Source of the DNA: an uncultured Candidatus Woesearchaeota archaeon
GTDB taxonomy: Archaea; Nanobdellota; Nanobdellia; Woesearchaeales; UBA10107
DNA length: 24,000 nucleotides
Reading direction: 5' to 3'
Assembly: GCA_963835585.1 (NCBI GenBank)
Contig: CAWIGF010000003.1
Coordinates: forward strand, 281,376-305,375
The position numbers were made by a program, and so were the translations under genes. Positions 1,360-19,295 of the stretch are shown in pieces (position 1 is the first letter of the stretch; every line of letters begins with the position of its first letter). The notes below the pieces were generated by a model. It saw nothing but the letters and a program-made list of their open reading frames with translations, was not told the origin of the DNA and did not search any database.

Positions 1360-3069
1360 TTATGCTATCATTATGCCTGTAAAAAAAACAGCGCATAAGA
1401 GAAAGACATAACTGCCTGCTGTGCTGAGTCTCCAGAGGAAAAGCGAGCCCGAACTGGAATCACTGATTTCTTTTTTCTTTATATCGTCAAGTGATAAATA
1501 TGAGTTCCAAAGAAAAATGCTATTTACTATAATATAAAAGAAAATCCAAATAAAGATAGTATAATACTCTGAGTTCAAAACCGGGAAATGGCCACTGCTT
1601 ATTGTTAATCCAAGCATGCCTAAATAAACCAAAAAGACAAATGCGTTAAACTTAATCAACGTAACATAAGATTTGGAGAATTTATCTTTTATGGCACCGG
1701 TGGGCTGCCAGACCAATGGTTTTTTTATTATGTTTAAAATGACAGAGTATGCACAGCTGTTAGCATGCGCTGTTCTGGCGATAATTGTGCCGTATTTGAC
1801 CTTTGAAATTCTGAACAGCGGCAGCACTACGAAACCAAATATGAGAAAAGGGAGGAACGGCAGAGCGTGCACAAGGCTTATGAATTTAAAGTTCCAAAAA
1901 AGCAGTACAAATACCTGAAATGACATGAGTACAGCGAATGCATAACTCACATAATACAAAAATCCAGAAATGAAGCATAATTTCTGTGAATTTGTGAGTT
2001 TTGATTTCCAGAACTCAGGATAAAATAAAAGGCTCATGTTGCCGCTGCACCATCTATTTTGCTGGTGGAAATATGCATGCATGTTTTCTGGACACAGGCC
2101 AATTGCAAGAATAATTGGGATGTATTTTATTTTCCAGCCATTATTGACTAATTTAATTCCTGTGTGTATGTCCTCGCTGTGCTCAATTTGAATTATGCCT
2201 CCAATGGAATCGAGTGCTTTTCGCCTGTAAATCGCATTTGATCCAACGCAGACTGCCCCGCCAAAATTATCTCTTGAAACCTGAATGATGCGGTAGAACT
2301 CCTCCTGAACACTGCCTGCGCCATATTCAAGTGCTGAACGCTGATGGATATCGTTGTCTGTTTGGAAATATTGCGGTGATTGGACAATAGATACAGTTGC
2401 ATCTTTCATGTATGGAAGAAGCTCTTTTATGAAATCAGGATTGGGAGCGAAGTCAGCATCAAATATTACGATAAATTCTCCATTTGAATTCTCAAACCCA
2501 AATTTGAGATTTCCTGACTTCTTCATGTATCCTTTATTTTCTCTGCTCAAATATGAGAATCCCTTTGATATTGCCAAGGCCTTGTGTTCTTTGTCCCCCT
2601 TGTCGTCAAGTACATACACTTTTTTGTTTTTGTAGTTTATTTTTGATATCGCATGAAATGTTTTTTTGAGAATCTCGGTGCTTTCCCCACAAATGGGAAC
2701 GAAAATATCGACAGATGGCAGTTTCTTTTTTTTGTCCCAGTATTTTTTAATAAATGCATTGTGCTTATCTAAATCAAATGATTTATAAAATAAATTAATG
2801 CCATAGCTGACAAGATAATGTACAGTAAAAATGCCGACAATCGGGGCAATAGTTAACCAATATATTAATTTAAGATTAAAAAAAACAACAAATCCGTAAA
2901 CAACAAAAAGCCAGCATATGATTCCCAGCAAATAAATCGTCCGTACTTTCCATGCATTTTTTATGATATACTTGTATTTATCTATATTTTCCGGTTTAGT
3001 GTTGGCGGATATTCTGCTGTTTAGGCGGACGTTTGAAAAATAATCTTTTAATAGGTTATTGTCATTCAT
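1360..3069 (-). CDS. Family-2 processive beta-glycosyltransferase (cellulose/chitin-synthase-like), membrane-integrated
   Basis: 569 aa. All GT2 processive signature motifs are visible: VLDDKGD, FDADF (DxD), SEDIHTG (TED) and QQNRWCSG (QxxRW). TM helices flank the catalytic domain. Confidence 0.85.
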   Translation of the reverse strand: MNDNNLLKDYFSNVRLNSRISANTKPENIDKYKYIIKNAWKVRTIYLLGIICWLFVVYGFVVFFNLKLIYWLTIAPIVGIFTVHYLVSYGINLFYKSFDLDKHNAFIKKYWDKKKKLPSVDIFVPICGESTEILKKTFHAISKINYKNKKVYVLDDKGDKEHKALAISKGFSYLSRENKGYMKKSGNLKFGFENSNGEFIVIFDADFAPNPDFIKELLPYMKDATVSIVQSPQYFQTDNDIHQRSALEYGAGSVQEEFYRIIQVSRDNFGGAVCVGSNAIYRRKALDSIGGIIQIEHSEDIHTGIKLVNNGWKIKYIPIILAIGLCPENMHAYFHQQNRWCSGNMSLLFYPEFWKSKLTNSQKLCFISGFLYYVSYAFAVLMSFQVFVLLFWNFKFISLVHALPFLPFLIFGFVVLPLFRISKVKYGTIIARTAHANSCAYSVILNIIKKPLVWQPTGAIKDKFSKSYVTLIKFNAFVFLVYLGMLGLTISSGHFPVLNSEYYTIFIWIFFYIIVNSIFLWNSYLSLDDIKKKEISDSSSGSLFLWRLSTAGSYVFLLCAVFFTGIMIA

Positions 3070-3360
3070 TTTACCCCGTACAGATTATTTTGTTATTCAA
3101 GACTGATTGTCATGCATACATTTTGAGGTATATAAATATTAACACTATTGACAATATTCAGAATATACATGATTTTATTTCATCAGAAAAAATGTAATAC
3201 CCCCAACGTGCGGGAAGACTTCGTTCAAAGCACTGTGGTTTATAGCGTCTGTAGCTTGCTTTATACGCATTTATAGACATTCAGACTATTTTAATCTTTT
3301 CTTTTCATTCGTAATTTATTGAAACTCTAAAAAATATTTTTAGAAATTATGATTGTGCAT

Positions 3361-3466
3361 TTTTAAATCGTTTCCCGACCCTGTTCAAGCCGCGACGAGC
3401 TGAAACAATGGCAAGGCCGAGCCTGCCGACCCTACATTTCTTCCCCATATTGACTGCGCCACGGGA
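3361..3466. repeat. Copy 1 of a ~105-nt direct repeat unit in a gene-free island
   Basis: 3361-3381 is identical to 3646-3666 (21/21). 3419-3436 is identical to 3704-3721 (18/18). The 37 nt between these blocks are unrelated in the two copies, and about 30 nt of partial similarity follows. The offset is exactly 285 bp. Confidence 0.8.
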
Positions 3467-3645
3467 GAGAAACCTGGCAAAATGTTTCATGCCTAAACGG
3501 CCTAAATTTCGCCACTGTCCTTTGAAAAATGCATTTCACGGCCTAAATTCGATTTAGATAATAACAACATACCTCTTTGCTATCATTAGGGCGGAGCAGG
3601 CCGTAGCTAGGCCGATGTGTAAAAATTCTATCCTCAAAAAATAAT

Positions 3646-3752
3646 TTTTAAATCGTTTCCCGACCCAAATGAACGCCTAGTTCGCCGAATGTCAGCCGAC
3701 GCAGAGCCTGCCGACCCTACAATTTCTCCATATACTGACCGCGGTCCGGGAC
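3646..3752. repeat. Copy 2 of the ~105-nt direct repeat unit
   Basis: See copy 1. Each conserved block contains CCGACCC (GGGTCGG on the minus strand), giving four copies in total. Confidence 0.8.
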
Positions 3753-3821
3753 CGAGCCATCTCTCTAGAACAAAATCAAAACTAATCAATCATGCATGAA
3801 TGATGCGAAGAAGCAAAGAAA

Positions 3822-3865
3822 GTCCGTGAAAGAGCCAAAAGAACGCGACACGTAAAGCAACGGAC
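3822..3865 (-). terminator. Hairpin plus T-rich tract downstream of the HEPN gene (possible terminator)
   Basis: GTCCGT (3822-3827) pairs with ACGGAC (3860-3865). On the minus strand the hairpin is followed by TTTCTTTGCTTCTTC. It lies 25 nt after the HEPN stop codon. Confidence 0.3.
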
Positions 3866-3889
3866 CACTTCACAAAAGGCATGAGTTTC

Positions 3890-4291
3890 TCATACCACTT
3901 TTGTCTTGACAACCGCTTTCAATTTCTGTATGACCGCAAGGAGTTTGTCTTTGTTGTTGCGTACATATACCAATTCTATCTGTTTCCCCTCGTACATGCT
4001 CTTGTTCCTGCGTATGCGCAGGTCATCGATGAGCGCGATCTCGTCCTGGTGGAGCTCATGGTAATTTGAAAGATAATCGACGAGGTCCTTGTGCGCATTC
4101 TCGCCTGCCGTCTTGTAACCGTCCGCAAGCGCGATGGCGGTCATAAGTTCCTTTAGTATCTCATAGTAGCTTTCAGCGATCATGGTGGGGAACGTATCCA
4201 TGTTGATATTTTTTGTATACGCTTCCCGTTGCTCGACGAGCTTTACGATCGCCTGTGCACGTTCCTTGTCCGGTGTTGTCTTGATTATCAT
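3890..4291 (-). CDS. HEPN-domain protein, partner of the upstream nucleotidyltransferase (MNT/HEPN pair)
   Basis: All-helical, about 133 aa, with a C-terminal LRIRRNKSMYEG motif (R-N-x3-Y/H type HEPN signature). The ORF track starts at TTG 4297; ATG at 4291 sits 2 nt after the MNT stop. Confidence 0.65.
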   Translation of the reverse strand: MIIKTTPDKERAQAIVKLVEQREAYTKNINMDTFPTMIAESYYEILKELMTAIALADGYKTAGENAHKDLVDYLSNYHELHQDEIALIDDLRIRRNKSMYEGKQIELVYVRNNKDKLLAVIQKLKAVVKTKVV

Positions 4292-4293
4292 GT

Positions 4294-4818
4294 TCAAAAG
4301 AGCTTAAGGTATCCTTTCAACACGATGCCATTGATGAGGTTGTTCTTGAATTCGCCTGACATTTTTGTCTTGTCGGACTCGATGAGTATATTGACGGTCT
4401 TATGCAAGTATTTCTCGTAGCTTCCTATATCAATTTTTCCTTCTTTCCCTATTATGAAGATATCGATGTCCGAGTGCTCAGTATCCTCTCCCCGTACTGC
4501 AGAGCCGAACAAGATGATGGCCTCGGGAGCCAACGTGTCCCACAAATAATCGATCAATCCAGATACATGTAATTCATACAAGATGCTTACTCTCTTGAAT
4601 AGTTTGAATGATTCGTCATCCCGATTTGCCCGATAGAACGGGACACTCCGTTTCTCGTATCGTGTGACAAGGTGTTCCGCTTGAAATTCCTTGAGATAAT
4701 TTGCCACCGAAAGCGGCGCGATACCGCTCAGTCTGCTTAATTCACGCAACCTGAAATTTTCCAACGGGTTATCGAAAAATACCTTGAGGAGTTTGTATTT
4801 GTTATATTTTTTGAACAT
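4294..4818 (-). CDS. Minimal nucleotidyltransferase (MNT) with N-terminal winged-HTH domain
   Basis: LFGSAVRGEDTEHSDIDIFI is the GS-x-RG...DxD pol-beta-type NTase motif. The N-terminal FRLRELSRLSGIAPLSVANYLKEFQAEHLV is HTH-like. Confidence 0.8.
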   Translation of the reverse strand: MFKKYNKYKLLKVFFDNPLENFRLRELSRLSGIAPLSVANYLKEFQAEHLVTRYEKRSVPFYRANRDDESFKLFKRVSILYELHVSGLIDYLWDTLAPEAIILFGSAVRGEDTEHSDIDIFIIGKEGKIDIGSYEKYLHKTVNILIESDKTKMSGEFKNNLINGIVLKGYLKLF

Positions 4819-4917: not shown

Positions 4918-5086
4918 CTGTACTATTCTCGTAAAGCCACCAGTATCAGGAAAACCTTGCAAAAAATGAAAAATCGTGCACAAGTTGCACGTGAACAACT
5001 AACCACAAAAAAATAAAACGGCCGTAAAAGATGCACACAAGGTTTGTAGTAGCAAAACAGGATTCTTAGGTTCAAGGGAAGTTTAA

Positions 5087-5168
5087 CGCGGCCGCCCGGA
5101 TTTGAACCGGGAAGTCTTTCGACACTGGTTTTCAAGACCAGCGCAGTACCGGATTGTGCCACGGCCGC
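5087..5168 (-). tRNA. tRNA-Ser (anticodon UGA), class II, no intron
   Basis: Fold: GCGGCCG-UG-GCA-CAAUCCGGUAC-UGC-G-CUGGU-CUUGAAA-ACCAG-UGUCGAAAGACUU-CCCGG-UUCAAAU-CCGGG-CGGCCGC-G. CCA is not encoded. A minus-strand TATA (GCTTTATATACA, about 5205-5216) lies upstream. Confidence 0.9.
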
Positions 5169-5245
5169 ATATAGACGTCTTTTAAGGCATTCTTGGACGA
5201 GTTTTGTATATAAAGCTTGTTGCCCGTAATAATGTAGTTACTTAC

Positions 5246-8504: not shown

Positions 8505-8990
8505 TCATATACGGTTGTACAGGCCTCGCGCGTAGTCCGTCATCTGCTTCAAATACGTGAATGTCTGTTCAGGGTTAGTGATGCCTTTTATGGTGAGATT
8601 CGGCTGCATTGTTATTGTTCCAGTCCTAAAAAACGTGTCTATGAAATTTTTTGAGAGTTTGATGTCATTGACAGTGTTGAACATGATGTAATTTTCTTTT
8701 TGTCCAACGAATTGGATTCTGTTTTTGTACACATAGTATTTTGTATGTGATGTGCGAACATATGTCAGAAGCGCCTGCATTATCACCAACAGTCCCAAAA
8801 CAGAAAATATGAGCACTGTTATTGATCCGGGAACCTGGATTCCAAGCAAGTAGATATTCAATGCAATGCCCCCATAGAACACAAGAGCAAGCACGAACGT
8901 AACGACTATTGTAGGAACTATCGCCCTGAGTGTATCTGGTTTTATTATGTATTCGGGAAACTCCTGTATTGCTTGGTTTGGTGCGTCCAT
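8505..8990 (-). CDS. Membrane protein with two TM helices and a bacterial-PH (bPH_2/DUF304-like) domain
   Basis: Start moved to M16 (MDAPNQ...) because the first 15 codons of ORF 8505..9035 translate the tRNA. Two TM helices are followed by YYVYKNRIQFVGQ...FFRTGTITMQ. Confidence 0.55.
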   Translation of the reverse strand: MDAPNQAIQEFPEYIIKPDTLRAIVPTIVVTFVLALVFYGGIALNIYLLGIQVPGSITVLIFSVLGLLVIMQALLTYVRTSHTKYYVYKNRIQFVGQKENYIMFNTVNDIKLSKNFIDTFFRTGTITMQPNLTIKGITNPEQTFTYLKQMTDYARGLYNRI

Positions 8991-8998
8991 GTATATAA

Positions 8999-9093
8999 TG
9001 GACCCGCCCGGATTCGAACCGGGGACTCCCACCACGTCAAGGTGATGTCATAACCATTGTCCGCCATGATTGGTGGCTCTAGACCACGGGTCC
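8999..9093 (-). tRNA. tRNA-Val (anticodon GAC) with a ~21-nt insertion in the D-loop (non-canonical intron)
   Basis: Fold: GGACCCG-UG-GUCU-AG[AGCCACCAAUCAUGGCGGACA]AUGGUUA-UGAC-A-UCACC-UUGACGU-GGUGG-GAGUC-CCCGG-UUCGAAU-CCGGG-CGGGUCC-A. The anticodon arm, T arm and acceptor stem are unambiguous. The insert boundaries are approximate. Confidence 0.75.
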
Positions 9094-10128
9094 TTTTATC
9101 TTAAAAGGTAGAATAGCATTCCTATATAAGTCTTTTTGATAGTACTGTGTAACTTCATGCCGATATATGGTTTTATTTTCAAAAAATCGCAAATAGAACC
9201 GAACGATGTGTCTGAGATTTGAACTTCCTACTTTTCTGAAGTAATTTAAAATATTCTCACCCTTGTTTGTTCCAATTTGGGTCTCATCTTTTGATACATA
9301 ACTGAATAAGTCATGCTTGTCTGATATTTGTTTTACTTGCCGGATTAGATTTTTATTATGAGATGTGAAAACAATACAAAATTGGGAGCCATCTCTTCCT
9401 CTGCGAGAAATCGATCCATCAGTATCAATAAGCCCCCTTAGACAGGCTAGTGATAATTTAGAACTTTGTAATATGCTTTTAGGGATCAACGTGTTATTCC
9501 TGATTTTATCCCCATATTCTATTCCAAATTTGTCGTGTAGGAACATACAGAAATTTTTTGAAGAAATCGTAAGATACAATGTATTTCTAGTTTTATCATT
9601 TTCTTTTAAGATGTGTGCATCTATTCCAAAAATATCAAAAATTAATTTTTGAAGGTAGTTGAAATACGGCAAGTCATATCTGGCATCTCCCGAGATTTTA
9701 AGAAAGTATTTTGTTAAGGTTCCATCTCCTAAGTGCGCTCCAATGAACTCTGCAAGTCGTTCATCAAGGATGGGTATTTTAATCTGTTTTGCGTTCGAAT
9801 AGTGGAATTTTGATATGCCTTTTTTTCTCCATTCAACTAGTTCTCTTTTGTATTTTCTTAGCAATGTTTTTGCTCCTTTTTGTCCGCCAATGCGTTTCCC
9901 CCAATTTTCTGGCAGATAAGATGCTTCAAAATCTTTTTCTTTCTTATGAGATAATTTCAAAAGTTTTTCAAATATTTCCTTGGGCAGCAGCATATTTTCT
10001 TGAAAATAATTCTTTAGGGTTGGGTATGGAATTTGCAACCGTTGAGCAACAGTATTCAAAGAATTATGTTTTTGCATTGTTGCAGCAATTAATTTACGTT
10101 GTTCTCCTTTTTTTAGCTTCACCCTCAT
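9079..10128 (-). CDS. Free-standing double-motif LAGLIDADG homing-endonuclease-like protein with N-terminal HTH
   Basis: Two LAGLIDADG motifs: LAEFIGAHLGDGTL and LACLRGLIDTDGSI. The N-terminal NSLNTVAQRLQIPYPTLKNYF is HTH-like. The last 4 codons plus the stop codon overlap the 5' 15 nt of tRNA-Val. Confidence 0.8.
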   Translation of the reverse strand: MRVKLKKGEQRKLIAATMQKHNSLNTVAQRLQIPYPTLKNYFQENMLLPKEIFEKLLKLSHKKEKDFEASYLPENWGKRIGGQKGAKTLLRKYKRELVEWRKKGISKFHYSNAKQIKIPILDERLAEFIGAHLGDGTLTKYFLKISGDARYDLPYFNYLQKLIFDIFGIDAHILKENDKTRNTLYLTISSKNFCMFLHDKFGIEYGDKIRNNTLIPKSILQSSKLSLACLRGLIDTDGSISRRGRDGSQFCIVFTSHNKNLIRQVKQISDKHDLFSYVSKDETQIGTNKGENILNYFRKVGSSNLRHIVRFYLRFFENKTIYRHEVTQYYQKDLYRNAILPFKIKGPVV

Positions 10129-11515: not shown

Positions 11516-14500
11516 TTATTGCCAGATCTTTCTTATTCCCAAGAATAGCAATAAACCTATTACAACTGTTGCGATGCTTACTCCTACACCAACTGGGACT
11601 GATGGTGTTCCGTGTGCTATCTCTCCTGATATTTTGATTACGCCGTTGGCTACTTGCTGAGGCACTGAAGGCGTGCTGACTAACGGAGTTGCAGTAGGCT
11701 CTGTCATGAACAACTTCAAATTGACGTTCGTATTCTGGTCAGGCTGTTCATAATTGACTCCAAGGTTCGTTACGAGCAATTGTCTATCCTTTACATTGAA
11801 ATTGTAAACATCATTCAGGTATCCTGTCCTTGTAGCATCTGAAGGACTTAGACGCAACATTACTTCGTTGCCTGTTCCTATTTTGTCCACAAGCAGGCTG
11901 TAAGTTGTCCCTTGGTATACGAACATGATGGTATCTATTTCACGTATAGATTTTGTCAATGGATTCTCCTGGGTTATGTTCCACAAGTAGTGCTGTGGCG
12001 AGACTATGGTAGGATTGTTGACTGAATTAAGCAAGCCTCCACCTGAAGATGATTCTGGCAATATCATTGGTTGCACATCGACATTAGTCTCTGTTGCGTT
12101 TGCTGAAAGCCCGATGTTATCGGTGACTTTCAGAGTGACGGTGTATCTTTCTATGGCCGTATATGAGTGAGGTACTGATGAATGCGAAGAATTCAATAAA
12201 TTAGTTCCATCCCCGAATGTCCAACTGTAAATAAGAGGACCATTTGCGTCACTTACTGTTGGCGTGAACACAATGTCCGCTGGATAGATTGTGCTTGGTG
12301 CGTAACTGAAACTTACAACTGGTGACTGTGGTGGTATGCCATTGACAGGTCCTGTGTATGTCACATTGTTGATTGTCATGTTGCCGCTGACCAAATTTCC
12401 GTTTGACACGTTAGCATTGGTGAAAACAACTCCCGTTGCTGTCGTGTTGTCAATGAACGAATTTGTCGCGTTGACATTGTTCAAGTTTGAGTTGGTGATT
12501 GTTGAATTTACTGAAACAACATTCACAAGCGTATCGTTTATGACCGTCGAATTTTCTATGTCGCTGCCAGTTACCTGTGAATTTTGGACAGTGCTTCCTG
12601 AAATGGTGCTGCTTGCAATTGTCGATGAGGAGACATTGCTGTCCGATACCGTTGAATTTGTAATTGTTGATGAATATATGTTGCTATTATCTGAAATGGT
12701 TGAGTTCGAAATTTGTGAGTTGTTGACTGAACTGCCGTCTATTGAGCTTCCTATGATTGTTGAACTTTCCGTTACGCTTGAACCATTTGTTATGTTCGAC
12801 TGGCTTACAGTTGAATCTTGTACTGCTGAGTTGTTTACTAACGAGTCGATTACGTGTGAATCATTGATATTAGCTCCTGAAAGGTAATCGTTGATTATTG
12901 TCGAGTATGTGGCATTTGAATTAAGCACAGTCGAATTTGTTATTGTCGAACCTGTGGTTACGCTGTTCATAACTGTTGAAGGGTCTATTACTTCATTGAG
13001 GCAATTGTACGATGGTTCATTTTCATAAATAGAACCTATAATTGTGCAATTGAAGAGGCTGTTTGCAATAACCATTGATCCTCCTAAGACTGTTGAAATA
13101 TTTATACTTGTTATTACATTTGCAGTTGAATCATTTATTCCTGATTGCGAATCTATAGCAACGCTAGTGATTTGATATGAGGCGTTTGCTGGGTAATATA
13201 CGCTGTTGATTGTTGAATTGAAGATGTTGTTTGTAACATTAACAGGCGGGATTACAACAGTTCCGTTGTTCTGCAGTGTCGTGAAAGAGAATGGTCCTGC
13301 TGTCGAGCAGTTGCTGATAAGATTTACATTGCATGCAGTTATGTTGTAGCTGTATGTTGTTGCATTCAAGAGTGCGAGAGGGATTACGCTGAATGAAGTT
13401 CCTGCTTGGTTGAATGTTCTGACTCCGAATAGATTAAGCGTGCTATTTGCCAAAATATCTGTGTTCCAACCTATTATTACAGAACTATTCGTGATTGAGG
13501 AGTTTGTGACGTTTGATATCACTGGTGCTGCGGTGCTGTTTGTCATGTTTATTGGCGGAATAACAATACTTCCATTGTTGTTCAATGTCGTGAACGAGAA
13601 CGGCCCTGCTATTGTGCAGTTGTTGTATATGTTGCATGCTGTTATGTTGTAATTATATGTTGTTGAGTTTACAAGTCCAGGCACGAAAACTGAACTATAT
13701 TGAGTTGTGTCATTAGTGAATGTCCCGACTCCGAATATGTCCAATGTGCTGTTAGTTATCTCGCTTGTCGCCCAATCCAAAGTGACTGAATCGTTTGTAG
13801 CAGTGACGTTAGATAATACGATGAATGGTGTCGAAGTGTCGTTGCCTGGCGGTATAACCACCGATCCGTTATTGTTAAGTGTGGTGAACTGGAATGGGCC
13901 TGCGGATGAGCAGTTGATGTACATGTTGCATGCCGTTATGTTGTAATAATATGTTGTCGAATTTGTAAGATTGCTAACTGGAACCGAGTATGATGTTCCT
14001 GAGACAAAAGTAAGTCCATTCAATACTAAAGTACTGTTGGTTGCTTCATTTGTCGTCCAGTTGATAATTGCAGATTCATTTGTTATATCAGAGACATTTA
14101 CATTTGAGATTACTGGCGCCGAAGTATCATTTACAGGTGGAATTACGACTGCTGTACTGTTGTAAGTGTAGATTGCAGTTACAGCTCCATTGCCGTTTAC
14201 ACTGATGTTCGTGGTTTGCGAATTAGGACTTGTAACGCTTACGTTTCCTGTAGTGTTCCATGAATCGAACACGTAGCTTGCGTTCAATGGATTATATGTT
14301 ACCGTGTAGTTTCCTGAATAAACTACGCTTGGTGTTGTATTTGGAAGACTCATTAACAAAGACTCTGGTGTTATGATGCCGTTGAGAATCACAGTGACAT
14401 TGAACGTGACACTTCCTATATCTGAAGGATTGCTTGCGTTAGTGTCAATTCCATCGAATGAAACTGAATACAAAGAAAGAGGAGGTCCTGGTATAGGAAC

Positions 14501-16735
14501 TACGATTACACTTTGCGTTGCTGATGTGCCGCTGACTCCTTCTGCGTCAGTCGCTGTTAGCGTTACATTGTATGTGCCGTTAACCAAATACTGATGAGTC
14601 GGATTTTGCAGGTTTGATGTGCTTCCGTCCCCGAAATTCCATGTCCAATTTGTGATTGCATAGGGTGAAGATGAAGTGTCCGTGAAGTTAAGAGTGTCAT
14701 TTACATTCACTGAAGAGCCATGGAGATATGCGAAACCTTGGATTGAGATATTGAAATTGGCAACTACATTATCGTAAGTGTAGATTGCAGTTACAGCTCC
14801 ATTGCCGTTTACACTGATGTTCGTGGTTTGCGAATTAGGACTTGTAACGCTTACGTTTCCTGTAGTATTCCATGAGTCAAACACGTAGCTTGAGTTCAAT
14901 GGAGTGTACGTTACTGTGTAGTTTCCAGGATATACACCTGTTGCAGTGACTGGAAGAGGTGTCTCATTGGTAATTATTGTGTCGACCCCATTTACGACAG
15001 CTGTAAATCCGCTGAACGTGATGTTTCCAAGATTAGTTGGATTTGTGTCAGCTCCGTTGAATGAGACTGAAAATGTGGAAGGAGCAGGCATAGGAACAAC
15101 AAGAACTGTCTGCGTTGCTGATGTGTTGCTGACTCCATCTGAGTCAGTTACAGTAAGGTCGATGTTGTATGTTCCAGGAGTCGAGTATTGATAAGTTGGA
15201 TTTTGTGACGTTGATATATTTCCGTCTCCGAAATCCCACAATCGGCTTGCTATGTTGTCGTATGAATAAGAATTATCCGTGAAGTTAAGAGTCTGATTTA
15301 CAAAAACCTGATAGACTGGAAGAGGAGGTGCTCCTGAAAGTGAAATAGTGAAATTAGCGATTGGAGCTATGTCATTGACTGTGATTTGCTGCGGTACTGG
15401 AGCAAATCCAACTCCGTCAGAGTCAGTTACCATAAGTGTTACTGGATATGTCCCGTTCTTCAAGTAGGTATGAGTAGGATTTGTTTGATTTGATGTCTGT
15501 CCATCGCCGAAGTTCCATAACTGTGAGACGATCGGATCAAGCGGCGTTCCTGGAGTCGAAAGATCAGTGAACGTGATACTTTGATTCTCTGTTATCGTTG
15601 TCGCGCTTTGCGTGAACGCTGTGTTCGGAGCTACATCACTGACCTGCACATAGGTTATATTACTTGCACTCACACCATCAGTGTCAGTTATGGTAAGATT
15701 GATTGCGTATGTTCCTTTCAAGAGGAATGTGTATGAAGGCGAAACTGTATTTCCGAAGACAGTTCCGTTCGAGAATGACCATACATACGTCAATGGCAAA
15801 TCATAGCCTGTCGATAATGCTCCGTTGAATGTTACTAGTTGATTTTCAAGCGATGTCTGGTTCGCTCCTGCATTTGCGATTGGAGGTATATCATTTACAA
15901 TAATGTTTTGTATACTTGAATTTGTAACGCCGTCAGAATCAGTTGAAGTAAGATTGATTGTGTATGTTCCGTTCTTCAAGTAAACGTGATTAGGATTTTG
16001 CAATGCTGAGGAACTTCCATCTCCAAATACCCAATTCCATGCAACTATTGTATCATAACCATGAGATAAGTCAGTGAAATTGACCTGAGCTCCTTCGTTT
16101 ACTGGATTTGGTGTGAAACTGAAGTTTGCGACTGGAGCTATATCAGAGATAGTGGCAGTAGTGCTTACTGTTGATGATCCGTTGTCAGAATCGGTAGCTG
16201 TGAAAGTTACTGTGTATGTTCCGTTCTTCAAGTAAACGTGATTAGGATTTTGCAATGCTGAGGAACTTCCATCTCCGAATGTCCAGTTGTACGAGACAAT
16301 TGTATCGCCATCGACAGGATCTGATGCTGTTCCGATGAATTTTATTGATTGATTTTCAATTCCATTGTAAGGTCCGTTTGTAATGGATGTCACAGGCAGT
16401 GCGTTCTGGATCGTTACCTGGCTTGAGCCCTGCAAGGCGCTTGGTATGTTGATTATTTTTCCGCCAACCATTGCAACTGTCGAGGCAGACCATACTTCGC
16501 ATTTCCATACATCACCATGAGTGGTATATGCCGAACTTAATGTTGAACCGATTGTGTCAGAGAATAAAACGCCGTTCTTGAACCATTTGTACACGTATTG
16601 TGAACCTGAAGGTGAGCAGCTCAAATCCTGATTGTGGAATGGAGTGCTTGGCGTTATTGTTACGCTGAGTGCCGCAACAGAAGCCAAACTAATCAAAAAT
16701 AAGAATACTATTGAAAGTAATTTTGTTTGCTTCAT
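11516..16735 (-). CDS. Giant (1739 aa) mosaic cell-surface protein: signal peptide, Ig-like domain, 7 PKD domains, 2 B-repeat-like modules, 3 Fn3-like domains, S/T/N-rich 5-residue-repeat region, C-terminal TM anchor
   Basis: Start moved to MKQTKLLSIVFLFLISLASVAALS (signal peptide) at 16735. PKD signatures of the type WxFGDG...NPxHxY...GTYxVxLTxTDxxG recur seven times. The Fn3-like pattern is ISNVxVSxITNxSAxIxW...TTYxYNITACN...GPFxFTT. The C-terminus is GVGVSIATVVIGLLLFLGIRKIWQ. Confidence 0.9.
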   Translation of the reverse strand: MKQTKLLSIVFLFLISLASVAALSVTITPSTPFHNQDLSCSPSGSQYVYKWFKNGVLFSDTIGSTLSSAYTTHGDVWKCEVWSASTVAMVGGKIINIPSALQGSSQVTIQNALPVTSITNGPYNGIENQSIKFIGTASDPVDGDTIVSYNWTFGDGSSSALQNPNHVYLKNGTYTVTFTATDSDNGSSTVSTTATISDIAPVANFSFTPNPVNEGAQVNFTDLSHGYDTIVAWNWVFGDGSSSALQNPNHVYLKNGTYTINLTSTDSDGVTNSSIQNIIVNDIPPIANAGANQTSLENQLVTFNGALSTGYDLPLTYVWSFSNGTVFGNTVSPSYTFLLKGTYAINLTITDTDGVSASNITYVQVSDVAPNTAFTQSATTITENQSITFTDLSTPGTPLDPIVSQLWNFGDGQTSNQTNPTHTYLKNGTYPVTLMVTDSDGVGFAPVPQQITVNDIAPIANFTISLSGAPPLPVYQVFVNQTLNFTDNSYSYDNIASRLWDFGDGNISTSQNPTYQYSTPGTYNIDLTVTDSDGVSNTSATQTVLVVPMPAPSTFSVSFNGADTNPTNLGNITFSGFTAVVNGVDTIITNETPLPVTATGVYPGNYTVTYTPLNSSYVFDSWNTTGNVSVTSPNSQTTNISVNGNGAVTAIYTYDNVVANFNISIQGFAYLHGSSVNVNDTLNFTDTSSSPYAITNWTWNFGDGSTSNLQNPTHQYLVNGTYNVTLTATDAEGVSGTSATQSVIVVPIPGPPLSLYSVSFDGIDTNASNPSDIGSVTFNVTVILNGIITPESLLMSLPNTTPSVVYSGNYTVTYNPLNASYVFDSWNTTGNVSVTSPNSQTTNISVNGNGAVTAIYTYNSTAVVIPPVNDTSAPVISNVNVSDITNESAIINWTTNEATNSTLVLNGLTFVSGTSYSVPVSNLTNSTTYYYNITACNMYINCSSAGPFQFTTLNNNGSVVIPPGNDTSTPFIVLSNVTATNDSVTLDWATSEITNSTLDIFGVGTFTNDTTQYSSVFVPGLVNSTTYNYNITACNIYNNCTIAGPFSFTTLNNNGSIVIPPINMTNSTAAPVISNVTNSSITNSSVIIGWNTDILANSTLNLFGVRTFNQAGTSFSVIPLALLNATTYSYNITACNVNLISNCSTAGPFSFTTLQNNGTVVIPPVNVTNNIFNSTINSVYYPANASYQITSVAIDSQSGINDSTANVITSINISTVLGGSMVIANSLFNCTIIGSIYENEPSYNCLNEVIDPSTVMNSVTTGSTITNSTVLNSNATYSTIINDYLSGANINDSHVIDSLVNNSAVQDSTVSQSNITNGSSVTESSTIIGSSIDGSSVNNSQISNSTISDNSNIYSSTITNSTVSDSNVSSSTIASSTISGSTVQNSQVTGSDIENSTVINDTLVNVVSVNSTITNSNLNNVNATNSFIDNTTATGVVFTNANVSNGNLVSGNMTINNVTYTGPVNGIPPQSPVVSFSYAPSTIYPADIVFTPTVSDANGPLIYSWTFGDGTNLLNSSHSSVPHSYTAIERYTVTLKVTDNIGLSANATETNVDVQPMILPESSSGGGLLNSVNNPTIVSPQHYLWNITQENPLTKSIREIDTIMFVYQGTTYSLLVDKIGTGNEVMLRLSPSDATRTGYLNDVYNFNVKDRQLLVTNLGVNYEQPDQNTNVNLKLFMTEPTATPLVSTPSVPQQVANGVIKISGEIAHGTPSVPVGVGVSIATVVIGLLLFLGIRKIWQ
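12353..12970 (-). repeat. About 40 tandem 5-residue (15-bp) units inside the giant gene
   Basis: DSHVI DSLVN NSAVQ DSTVS QSNIT ... NSTIS ... SSTIT NSTVS DSNVS SSTIA SSTIS GSTVQ NSQVT GSDIE NSTVI. V or I falls at every fifth position. Confidence 0.7.
14162..15367 (-). repeat. Tandem duplication of a (PKD + B-repeat-like) two-domain module, period 612 bp
   Basis: 14162-14254 is identical to 14774-14866 (93/93 by direct reading), with high similarity beyond. The protein segment FDSWNTTGNVSVTSPNSQTTNISVNGNGAVTAIYTY is repeated exactly. Confidence 0.85.
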
Positions 16736-16739
16736 GTGC

Positions 16740-18002
16740 TTATTTTCCGGAAAATATGTCGAACAGATTTCTCCAGCTAAGTCCGACTGTTCCTTCAGGA
16801 CCTGTCTGACTTGAATGTATGTCTGCATCTGTTCCCATCCCATATGCAACATCAACATCAAAACGTAAATCTTTTGCCCAATTGCCCAAGAATGCAAAGT
16901 CGTGGTTTAATGCAGCGTGGTATCTTGTGAAATTATTTCCTTCTCCGGTGAAATTGTCTGCTCCACCGCGAAGCTCTGTCCCATCGTGAAGAATTACTCG
17001 TGCTTCCAGATTAAGGTCTTGCTCGGAAACTGGATATTCGATTCCCATGACATGACCTGCTCCTGTTCTGTCCAGTATTTGTGCAGTGATCCTTGTTTTT
17101 GTTGTGTTAGTATTGTAATCAGTTCCAAACACAAGGTTTAGTCCATTTCCTTTTTGATCGTAAGGTCCGACGCTTGGAGCGTTTCCATCAGTGTTTTGCC
17201 AATTCCATCCGCCAAGCACAAATGGTGTTATACCATTTCCGACGTCAATGCCTGCACCGAGCGCAGCATCTCCTGCAAGAAGACTGAGCGTTTGTTTGTC
17301 TCCATCGACATCCAAGCTTTGTTTTGGCGCAAATTCGCCGTTAAGTGAAAGTATGATTGATATGTCGTCCTTTTTAACAACAGGTCGTGCATATACTTTG
17401 AAATCAGGTCCGTTGTTTGTTGCGACTGACTTGAATGGAGCGGCTCCGCTTCCTTCAATTGGTTGTGAATTTATTTGCGAATATGTCCATCCTGCGAATC
17501 CGCCGTCTTCCATTGTGAAATCAGAAATATTTTTTGCAGTTGCAGAATTTGATTGTGCAACAACTTTACTCATATCTATGACATTAGGTTCGTAGACTGT
17601 GGGCGCTCCTGCATTTTGCGTGAATGTTACTGGTGCGCCTGTTGCAGATTTTCCGTCAGTTGCGTATGCATTTAGAACTCCTCTCTTAACTCCTCGTATT
17701 TGCGCAGGATTTATTTTGAGAGTGACCTTGCGTCTTGCTTTTGTTTTCTTGATAGGGCTTCCCTTTATTGTATTTCCATGATTAGGTGAGCTTTGATCTC
17801 CATTTAAGATATCTATATATGTAACTGGTTGCGAAGGGGATTTTGGTTGAACATATACAGTGATATTTGATTTATCTGCATGGTATTGAGCATTATCTAT
17901 TGTTGGTTTTGCGTATGCAGAACCTATTGCTAAGAATGTCGCAGTAATTGTTGGTGCGACGTATTTGACACATTTCCCGTACATGTTTCGGATAGTATTC
18001 AT
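16740..18002 (-). CDS. Secreted beta-rich protein (420 aa) with a porin-like C-terminal half; first gene of the surface operon
   Basis: Signal-like N-terminus ...VAPTITATFLAIGSAYA|KP. It has no TM helices. The C-terminal half consists of short amphipathic strands separated by G/N/D turns. Its stop lies 4 nt before the giant gene's ATG. Confidence 0.7.
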   Translation of the reverse strand: MNTIRNMYGKCVKYVAPTITATFLAIGSAYAKPTIDNAQYHADKSNITVYVQPKSPSQPVTYIDILNGDQSSPNHGNTIKGSPIKKTKARRKVTLKINPAQIRGVKRGVLNAYATDGKSATGAPVTFTQNAGAPTVYEPNVIDMSKVVAQSNSATAKNISDFTMEDGGFAGWTYSQINSQPIEGSGAAPFKSVATNNGPDFKVYARPVVKKDDISIILSLNGEFAPKQSLDVDGDKQTLSLLAGDAALGAGIDVGNGITPFVLGGWNWQNTDGNAPSVGPYDQKGNGLNLVFGTDYNTNTTKTRITAQILDRTGAGHVMGIEYPVSEQDLNLEARVILHDGTELRGGADNFTGEGNNFTRYHAALNHDFAFLGNWAKDLRFDVDVAYGMGTDADIHSSQTGPEGTVGLSWRNLFDIFSGK

Positions 18003-19149: not shown

Positions 19150-19295
19150 TGCGGGAGAAGGGATTTGAACCCTCGTAGGGACTAACCCACAGGATATCTT
19201 CCTATGCAATGGTTATCCATCGCCAGGTCTTAAGTTTCGCAGAAACGACTTTCATCATTTCACCTGCGCATTTGACCAGGCTCTGCCACTCCCGC
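19150..19295 (-). tRNA. tRNA-Leu (anticodon UAA), class II, interrupted by two insertions (~27 nt and ~33 nt)
   Basis: Fold: GCGGGAG-UG-GCAG-AGCCUGGUCAA-AUGC-G-CAGGU-[27 nt, 19235-19261]-CUUAAG-[33 nt, 19196-19228]-A-UCCUG-UGGGUUAGUCCCUAC-GAGGG-UUCAAAU-CCCUU-CUCCCGC-A. The gene is 146 nt, versus about 86 nt mature. Boundaries were inferred by restoring a 7-nt anticodon loop. Confidence 0.7.

Follow-up and report, generated by a model that had tools for sequence, protein, structure and literature searches.

Tandem repeat units with two perfectly conserved blocks in an archaeal intergenic gap, and their possible role as a duplicated promoter module

Most intergenic gaps in the 24,000-nucleotide stretch of contig CAWIGF010000003.1 analyzed here (hereafter, the window) are shorter than ~105 bp. 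The gap that concerns us extends over 820 bp between a glycosyltransferase gene and a HEPN-like gene, and the largest open reading frame (ORF) touching it encodes 54 amino acids (aa), in agreement with the original prediction, made from the letters alone, that it holds no ORF of 60 aa or more. Within this gap lie two direct copies of a 108-nt unit, here called A and B, at an offset of exactly 285 nt. Each unit comprises two blocks that are identical between the copies, a divergent core that separates them, and a semi-conserved tail (Table 1). The spacer between the units contains smaller repeats, found where they had been predicted: ACGGCCTAAATT at 3497 and 3538, GCCTAAA at 3491, 3500, and 3541, and the hairpin-like sequence GGCC-N7-GGCC at 3599-3614.

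Table 1. Coordinates of the repeat units, the DNA around them, and the neighboring genes (positions within the window)
Feature	Positions	Strand	Remarks
Glycosyltransferase, family 2, cellulose-synthase-like	1360-3069	minus	first gene downstream when the units are read on the minus strand
Unit A block 1, ATTTTTAAATCGTTTCCCGACCC (23-mer)	3359-3381		same letters as 3644-3666
Unit A TATA-box-like 9-mer	3360-3368	minus	TTTAAAAAT on minus, TTTTTAAAT on plus
Unit A heptamer 1, CCGACCC	3375-3381		
Unit A divergent core, 37 nt	3382-3418		matches core B at 14/37
Unit A block 2, GAGCCTGCCGACCCTACA (18-mer)	3419-3436		same letters as 3704-3721
Unit A heptamer 2, CCGACCC	3426-3432		in block 2, 51 nt past heptamer 1
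Unit A semi-conserved tail	3437-3466		20/30; terminal CGGGA complements TCCCG at 3373-3377
Inter-unit spacer	3467-3643		without counterpart beyond unit B
Unit B block 1, same 23-mer	3644-3666		TATA-like 9-mer 3645-3653; CCGACCC 3660-3666
Unit B divergent core, 37 nt	3667-3703		
Unit B block 2, same 18-mer	3704-3721		CCGACCC at 3711-3717
Unit B semi-conserved tail	3722-3751		CGGGA at end
GC-richer non-coding stretch, unit B to HEPN stop codon	3752-3889		no family match, no fold signal
Terminator-like hairpin GGTATGAGAAACTCATGCC	3878-3896	minus	end of HEPN-like gene; then TTTTG on the minus strand
HEPN-like gene, MNT partner	3890-4291	minus	part of toxin-antitoxin pair, GC 44%
MNT-type nucleotidyltransferase	4294-4818	minus	part of toxin-antitoxin pair, GC 44%
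tRNA-Ser(TGA)	5086-5169	minus	borders the stretch with MNT/HEPN and the units

When the DNA is compared with itself at the 285-nt offset, identity is, in order, 6/30 in the upstream flank, 23/23 in block 1, 14/37 in the core, 18/18 in block 2, 20/30 in the tail, and then 10/30 and 8/30. The 21-mer originally reported as shared is thus part of a 23-mer (at 3359 and 3644), the 18-mer (at 3419 and 3704) is exact as given, and the ~30 nt that follow do show the partial similarity ascribed to them. The cores had been described as unrelated, and their identity is indeed near background (9.4 ± 2.7 matches for the core, versus the 14 of 37 observed). When the 108 match/mismatch positions were permuted 200,000 times, only two permutations contained runs as long as these (≥23 and ≥18 matches), and no match to the 23-mer or the 18-mer is expected from shuffles of the window, with up to three mismatches allowed. 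The heptamer CCGACCC, predicted for each conserved block, occurs four times in 24 kb (versus 0.7 expected), always inside the unit blocks and with a spacing of 51 nt in each unit. The repeat pair is real, and its mosaic conservation is non-random and far from chance.

The units look like the products of an old duplication, after which the core and flanks drifted almost to background without insertions or deletions and two short blocks stayed perfect. The equal length of the two cores is most simply explained as inherited, and is not by itself evidence of a length constraint. Because drift spared exactly two short blocks, the units are probably functional, and the pair is apparently under selection.

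One conceivable source of such a pattern is decayed protein-coding sequence, in the form of a pseudogene that contained an internal repeat or of a pair of small paralogous genes. The 285-nt and 51-nt spacings are both divisible by three, the GC content and skew are like those of the neighboring genes, and one plus-strand frame reads FLNRFPT...SLPTLHFFPILTAPRER in one unit and FLNRFPT...SLPTLQFLHILTAVRDR in the other, with four synonymous codon changes. That frame also has the lowest ratio of non-synonymous to synonymous change (pN/pS) of the six, 0.48-0.55. However, it is broken in unit B, every frame of the region contains 10-20 stops, and a pN/pS of ~0.5 that derives from 11 changes (five synonymous, six non-synonymous) is not significant. 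No frame has a significantly low pN/pS, so conservation is at the nucleotide rather than the peptide level, which supports a reading at the level of DNA. Further, the blocks show perfect nucleotide identity without synonymous differences, unlike diverging coding paralogues. An exhaustive profile search with an 80-aa translation returned only two highly repetitive junk sequences (P0154 and P0155) that are not homologues, a chimeric query built from four frames had no match at E ≤ 10, Pfam gave nothing for 10 stop-to-stop segments, and ORFs from all of the related loci that were fetched yielded no real tblastn match. The frame-shifted gene remnant that had been raised at the outset thus finds no support in the coding, profile, Pfam, or tblastn tests, and we regard any coding origin as highly improbable.

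Each 23-mer contains a 9-mer that resembles a TATA box. Its two strand readings, TTTAAAAAT and TTTTTAAAT, each differ by one mismatch from the local consensus TTTATAAAT, which places it among the TATA-like elements of the window. Boxes resembling TTTATAAAT stand 26-37 nt ahead of start codons and tRNAs in the window, and 19 of 31 are in intergenic DNA, which makes up 10% of the window; the four unit boxes belong to this class. Read on the minus strand, the 20 nt that follow the unit box are 20%-25% GC, as compared with 29% ± 10% for 12 local promoters, whereas on the plus strand the corresponding 20 nt are 50%-55% GC, exceeding the maximum of 45% among the same 12. Because the downstream GC fits local promoters only on the minus strand, a leftward promoter is modestly favored. 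Just upstream of the box in the same reading is an octamer, GGAAACGA, that resembles GCAATAGA and AGGAAAAG at local promoters. A duplicated cis-regulatory array was among the possibilities first proposed for this locus, and it gains support from the presence, in the 23-mer, of a 9-mer of the window's own promoter class.

Our preferred explanation, tentative and short of probable, is that the units are a duplicated promoter-plus-binding-site module that acts at the DNA level. The two units would be old tandem duplicates of such a regulatory module in a DPANN-type archaeal genome, with a promoter element of the TFB-recognition element (BRE)/TATA type inside each 23-mer, most likely directed leftward on the minus strand. 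Each unit has two CCGACCC heptamers at a distance of 51 bp (they read GGGTCGG on the minus strand), which would be candidate sites for one sequence-specific protein; in the minus-strand reading, one would abut the promoter element and the other would be positioned 51 bp (~five helical turns) further upstream. Purifying selection would have kept the promoter element and the heptamer blocks identical as the DNA between and beyond them drifted to near background. The unit B box would transcribe the spacer leftward from ~3625, and the unit A box would transcribe from ~3340 toward the glycosyltransferase gene. Three elements of this reading are inferred: promoter activity at the boxes, binding of a protein to the heptamers, and the identity of the transcript.

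Archaeal BRE/TATA promoters can have adjacent regulator-binding sites, the Ptr2/Lrp-type upstream activation sites being one example. The units are like BRE/TATA promoters in carrying a 9-mer that differs from the local consensus by one mismatch and, less clearly, in the minus-strand flanks of this box, purine-rich upstream and AT-rich downstream; they are like promoters with regulator sites in having short repeated motifs beside and upstream of the box, in helical phase. They differ in that their conservation spans ~100 bp from the box, which is unusual upstream of an archaeal promoter, and in that the module is tandemly duplicated 285 bp apart in DNA that is GC-rich for this genome (46%, where regulatory DNA is otherwise 29%-30% GC). 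There are other points that weigh against a promoter module. The TATA-like box is nearly symmetric, so that its orientation rests on flanking composition alone, and the putative BRE has C at position -3, where A is found in 13 of 14 hand-aligned local promoters. Just past either box on the minus strand, neither a gene nor a stable RNA is obvious, and the glycosyltransferase gene has TATA-like boxes of its own that are closer. No candidate DNA-binding regulator emerged from the analysis, and no second locus with these motifs was found in the searched collections, so a regulon cannot be shown.

To our knowledge, almost no promoters, regulators, or small RNAs have been experimentally characterized in DPANN archaea. 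Blocks that are identical over 23 and 18 nt amid diverged surroundings probably mark an element that is functional in this tiny genome. The units offer concrete motifs to work with, namely the TATA-like box and GGGTCGG. If they prove to be a regulated promoter module, they would be an ordinary yet useful example; a pair of RNAs whose core can be exchanged would be more unusual. In either case, this is a single locus for which no relatives were found, and its general significance is limited accordingly.

The gap was originally described as a GC-enriched island, and enrichment of this kind was taken as a sign of structured RNA. The description is correct for 3359-3889 (46% GC), not for the gap as a whole (0.402, versus a window mean of 0.393) or for its first part (3070-3358), which at 29% GC is like other intergenic DNA (29%-30%). 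From 3359 the enrichment runs on into the HEPN and MNT genes (44%), with DNA of 29%-36% GC on both sides. The left edge of this GC-richer islet (3359-4818) is the start of unit A, and tRNA-Ser borders its other side. Because the stretch with the units is compositionally continuous with the adjacent HEPN/MNT genes, the enrichment is not RNA-specific. It is the signal of a ~1.5-kb compositional islet that includes protein genes, not a specific signature of non-coding RNA, and looks like an acquired islet. The proposed link to structured RNA is not supported: there is no Rfam match at E ≤ 10, folding z-scores range from -0.9 to +1.3, consensus folds of the two copies offer only short invariant helices, and the enrichment spans toxin-antitoxin genes.

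A small-RNA family with a target-specific segment had also been proposed at the outset, and in a rival reading of this kind the units would be two tandem sibling small RNA (sRNA) genes, each with its own promoter and a copy-specific segment that pairs with different targets. In one version the plus-strand box is used and the RNAs start near 3387-3390 and 3672-3675, so that each has a specific 5' segment of ~30 nt, followed by the shared 18-nt block and the tail. In the other, the RNA is read from the minus strand, and two small hairpins with G.U pairs, GGGUC-GGCA-GGCUC and GGUCG-GGAAA-CGAUU, flank the variable core. The parallel is with the bacterial sRNA genes OmrA and OmrB, adjacent paralogues with near-identical 5' and 3' ends and a distinct central region (PMC2588501). 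The units share this layout of conserved blocks around a distinct center: they are tandem, in the same orientation, with identical end blocks, an equal-length divergent center, and a promoter-like element in the repeat. They are unlike OmrA/OmrB in that the host is archaeal, in that terminator, conserved structure, and targets were not found for the units, and in that much of their conserved 5' block is the promoter-like box itself rather than RNA.

Some properties of the DNA do fit such sRNAs. The unit-bearing stretch is GC-richer than other intergenic DNA (46% versus 29%-30%) and C consistently outnumbers G on its plus strand, a TATA-like box lies within each unit, and the two small hairpins of the invariant blocks form on the minus strand only, owing to their G.U pairs. 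On the other hand, folding of the units, spacer, and flanks is no better than that of shuffles on either strand (z from -0.9 to +0.7 for RNA), and for single-stranded DNA z ranges from -0.1 to +1.3, with no end-to-end stem. Consensus folds of the two copies have 9 and 15 pairs, all of them invariant except for one two-sided change in the diverged core, although two sequences provide little power; the helices are TCCCG/CGGGA and, on the minus strand, GGGUC/GGCUC. At gathering thresholds, Rfam identifies only three tRNAs, all elsewhere in the window. Over 3000-3950, the Infernal scan against Rfam that had been suggested gave, at E ≤ 10, one spurious 14-bit match to a long non-coding RNA and nothing else, and ARAGORN found nothing there. 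These results remove the positive case for a structured RNA and are compatible with an unstructured, base-pairing RNA.

The cores have no complementary site in 24 kb beyond shuffle expectation, and an IMG/VR search with their halves gave no exact match. On the plus strand, the DNA from box to start is 50%-55% GC, unlike all 12 local promoters, and no run of five or more T residues or terminator-like site directly follows either unit. No further family members appeared in any searched collection. On balance, sibling sRNA genes are the leading rival to the promoter module, although rather unlikely. Known guide RNA classes were also checked: there is no box C motif (RTGATGA) of a C/D RNA in 3070-3900, and although ACA ends the 18-mer, as in an H/ACA RNA, no hairpin precedes it. 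Two other RNA candidates were rejected. One was a spacer RNA that would pair with the beginning of the glycosyltransferase mRNA, as an inverted match of 24 nt (75%) had hinted, but the duplex energy is no better than that of shuffles. The other was split or permuted tRNA halves, for which no T-arm-like sequence is present.

A bolder version would make the units the first two visible members of a DPANN family of guide-type sRNAs, in which constant 5' and 3' handles, each with a GGGUCGG/CCGACCC motif bound by protein, frame a 37-nt programmable segment, independently of clustered regularly interspaced short palindromic repeats (CRISPR) and cas genes and tied to the MNT/HEPN islet of defense type. 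We give this combination of claims only a very slight chance. In CRISPR-like mini-arrays, such as those that encode CreA antitoxin RNAs, two degenerate repeats flank one spacer-like segment. The units resemble these in that their copy-specific 37-nt segment has a typical spacer length and lies between constant flanks, but the flanks of one unit share just CCGACCC (7-8 nt), the identical blocks recur at 285 nt and not at the distance of a repeat plus a spacer, there are no cas genes in 24 kb, and, as noted above, IMG/VR has no exact match to the core halves. Arrays of the type reported by TRF are also absent from a repeat search of the window.

The composition of the islet raises a different prospect, and decayed element termini had been among the possibilities first proposed. 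The units would be what is left of a mobile or integrated element (sites of recombination or attachment, boundaries of cassettes, or termini), would have arrived with the MNT/HEPN pair, and may be non-functional. The stretch from 3359 to 4818 is 44%-46% GC, is flanked by DNA of 29%-36%, borders tRNA-Ser, and begins exactly at unit A; moreover, the MNT/HEPN pair is found in many different DPANN contexts, hence it moves. Integron-like cassette arrays, often carrying toxin-antitoxin cassettes, have been reported in Nanoarchaeota (PMC9668308). The units share with the attC sites of archaeal integrons the direct orientation of the copies, ends that are conserved around a variable middle, and a toxin-antitoxin pair as neighbor. 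They are unlike attC sites in lacking the R''/R' motifs (no RYYYAAC or GTTRRRY on either strand of 3300-3900), an imperfect palindrome, and an end-to-end single-stranded DNA hairpin, and in that none follows the other neighboring genes. Inverted repeats, as expected at the termini of miniature inverted-repeat transposable elements or insertion sequences, flank neither a single unit nor the pair, and there are no target duplications. Direct comparison with the 3' end of tRNA-Ser shows no similarity, and an attachment site derived from this tRNA was rejected, as no tRNA-Ser-like sequence is present.

Among the proteins of the window we found no integrase, transposase, reverse transcriptase, Cas, or Orc1/Cdc6 gene. 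The units are missing downstream of every HEPN/MNT relative retrieved. Neutral remnants, for their part, would not hold 23 and 18 nt perfect while adjoining positions saturate. We consider relics of an element doubtful on these grounds. Two further candidates of this general kind were dropped. Archaeal replication origins carry origin recognition box (ORB) motifs, defined by a TTCC...GAA dyad (PMC1904270); the block has TTCC without a GAA partner, and the copies are direct, not inverted, which speaks against ORB and mini-ORB elements. The template and variable repeats of a diversity-generating retroelement, which differ at template adenines, were rejected as well, given that the cores differ at 23 of 37 positions, with all base types involved, and that the window has no reverse transcriptase domain.

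A search for additional copies with other cores had been suggested, and it found none in the window or in the searched collections. Within the 24 kb, neither blastn-short nor a pattern search allowing three mismatches found another copy. The 21-mer has no match in GTDB representative genomes, and blastn against phages and plasmids gave no unit copy. A gapped pattern of the two blocks has no match in IMG/VR and one in the JGI metagenomes (L001), inside a high-GC bacterial gene and with a 30-nt gap, which we attribute to chance; the same applies to single IMG/VR matches to the 18-mer and to a 17-mer, both in unrelated coding sequences without the second block. The closest relative of the glycosyltransferase (63%-65% identity, loci L002-L005) also has a gap upstream of its gene, of ~500 bp, and this gap has no similarity to the one described here, no repeats, and no Rfam match. 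Neither unit-like sequence nor an analogous repeat architecture is present at 16 loci with HEPN/MNT relatives (L006-L020 and L023). It should be noted that the nearest homologues of both neighboring genes are only 63%-67% identical, too distant for phylogenetic footprinting.

The MNT/HEPN pair recurs jointly on Nanoarchaeota and Woesearchaeota contigs, in many different contexts. Relatives of the HEPN-like protein are named as Nanoarchaeota or Woesearchaeota and adjoin archaeal genes such as that for RNase P p30. In the Nanoarchaeota relatives (L006-L009), a second small toxin-antitoxin-like set, RHH_12 plus PIN_2, is located ~240 nt downstream of the HEPN homologue, which indicates that toxin-antitoxin-like modules are clustered in those genomes. 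The closest named relatives of the glycosyltransferase are Patescibacteria (candidate phyla radiation, CPR, bacteria), at 43%-63% identity. Because the relatives of the glycosyltransferase are thus in Patescibacteria/CPR and those of MNT/HEPN in Nanoarchaeota/Woesearchaeota, the similarities suggest cross-domain gene sharing in this neighborhood.

Overall, the host appears to be a DPANN archaeon that uses archaeal-type promoters, because its tRNAs include intron-bearing ones, TATA-type boxes precede its genes, and the HEPN relatives are in Nano- and Woesearchaeota. A bacterial (CPR) host, suggested by the glycosyltransferase homologues, was dropped on the same three lines of evidence. One interrupted tRNA, at 19150-19295 on the minus strand, is of class II, with a long variable arm and an insertion of ~60 nt in the anticodon loop; it was found by Rfam (35.8 bits) and missed by ARAGORN. 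The insertion carries AAUGAUGA, which is box-C-like, and is an archaeal-type tRNA intron, possibly with a guide-RNA-like motif. The second, at 8999-9093 (minus), begins with GGACCCGTGGTCTAGAGCC, is reported by ARAGORN as "tRNA-???" with a four-base anticodon, aligns in Rfam to tRNA positions 9-63 (21 bits), and overlaps the listed start of the ORF at 8505-9035. It is probably also an interrupted tRNA, with a non-canonical intron position. Beside it, at 9079-10128 (minus), a free-standing gene encodes a protein of 349 aa that has a LAGLIDADG_3 domain and, at its N terminus, a weak helix-turn-helix.

Several other features of the window may be noted. The HEPN stop codon and the hairpin GGTATGAGAAACTCATGCC overlap; with T-rich runs to its left and right, this hairpin could act as a terminator for transcription from either side. 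In the AT-rich part of the gap, a box on the minus strand, GAAAAGATTAAAATAG (~3300-3286), is closely like two local promoters (aaaaGATTAAATA); a 31-aa ORF (3175-3270, minus) begins 24 nt after the first T of this box, and a hairpin with a T6 run is found at 3216-3190. Judged from these signals, 3175-3300 (minus) may be a small transcription unit. Last, the product of the gene at 11516-16897 (minus), 1793 aa long, has seven or more PKD domains and is probably a surface protein, of a sort typical for episymbionts with small genomes.

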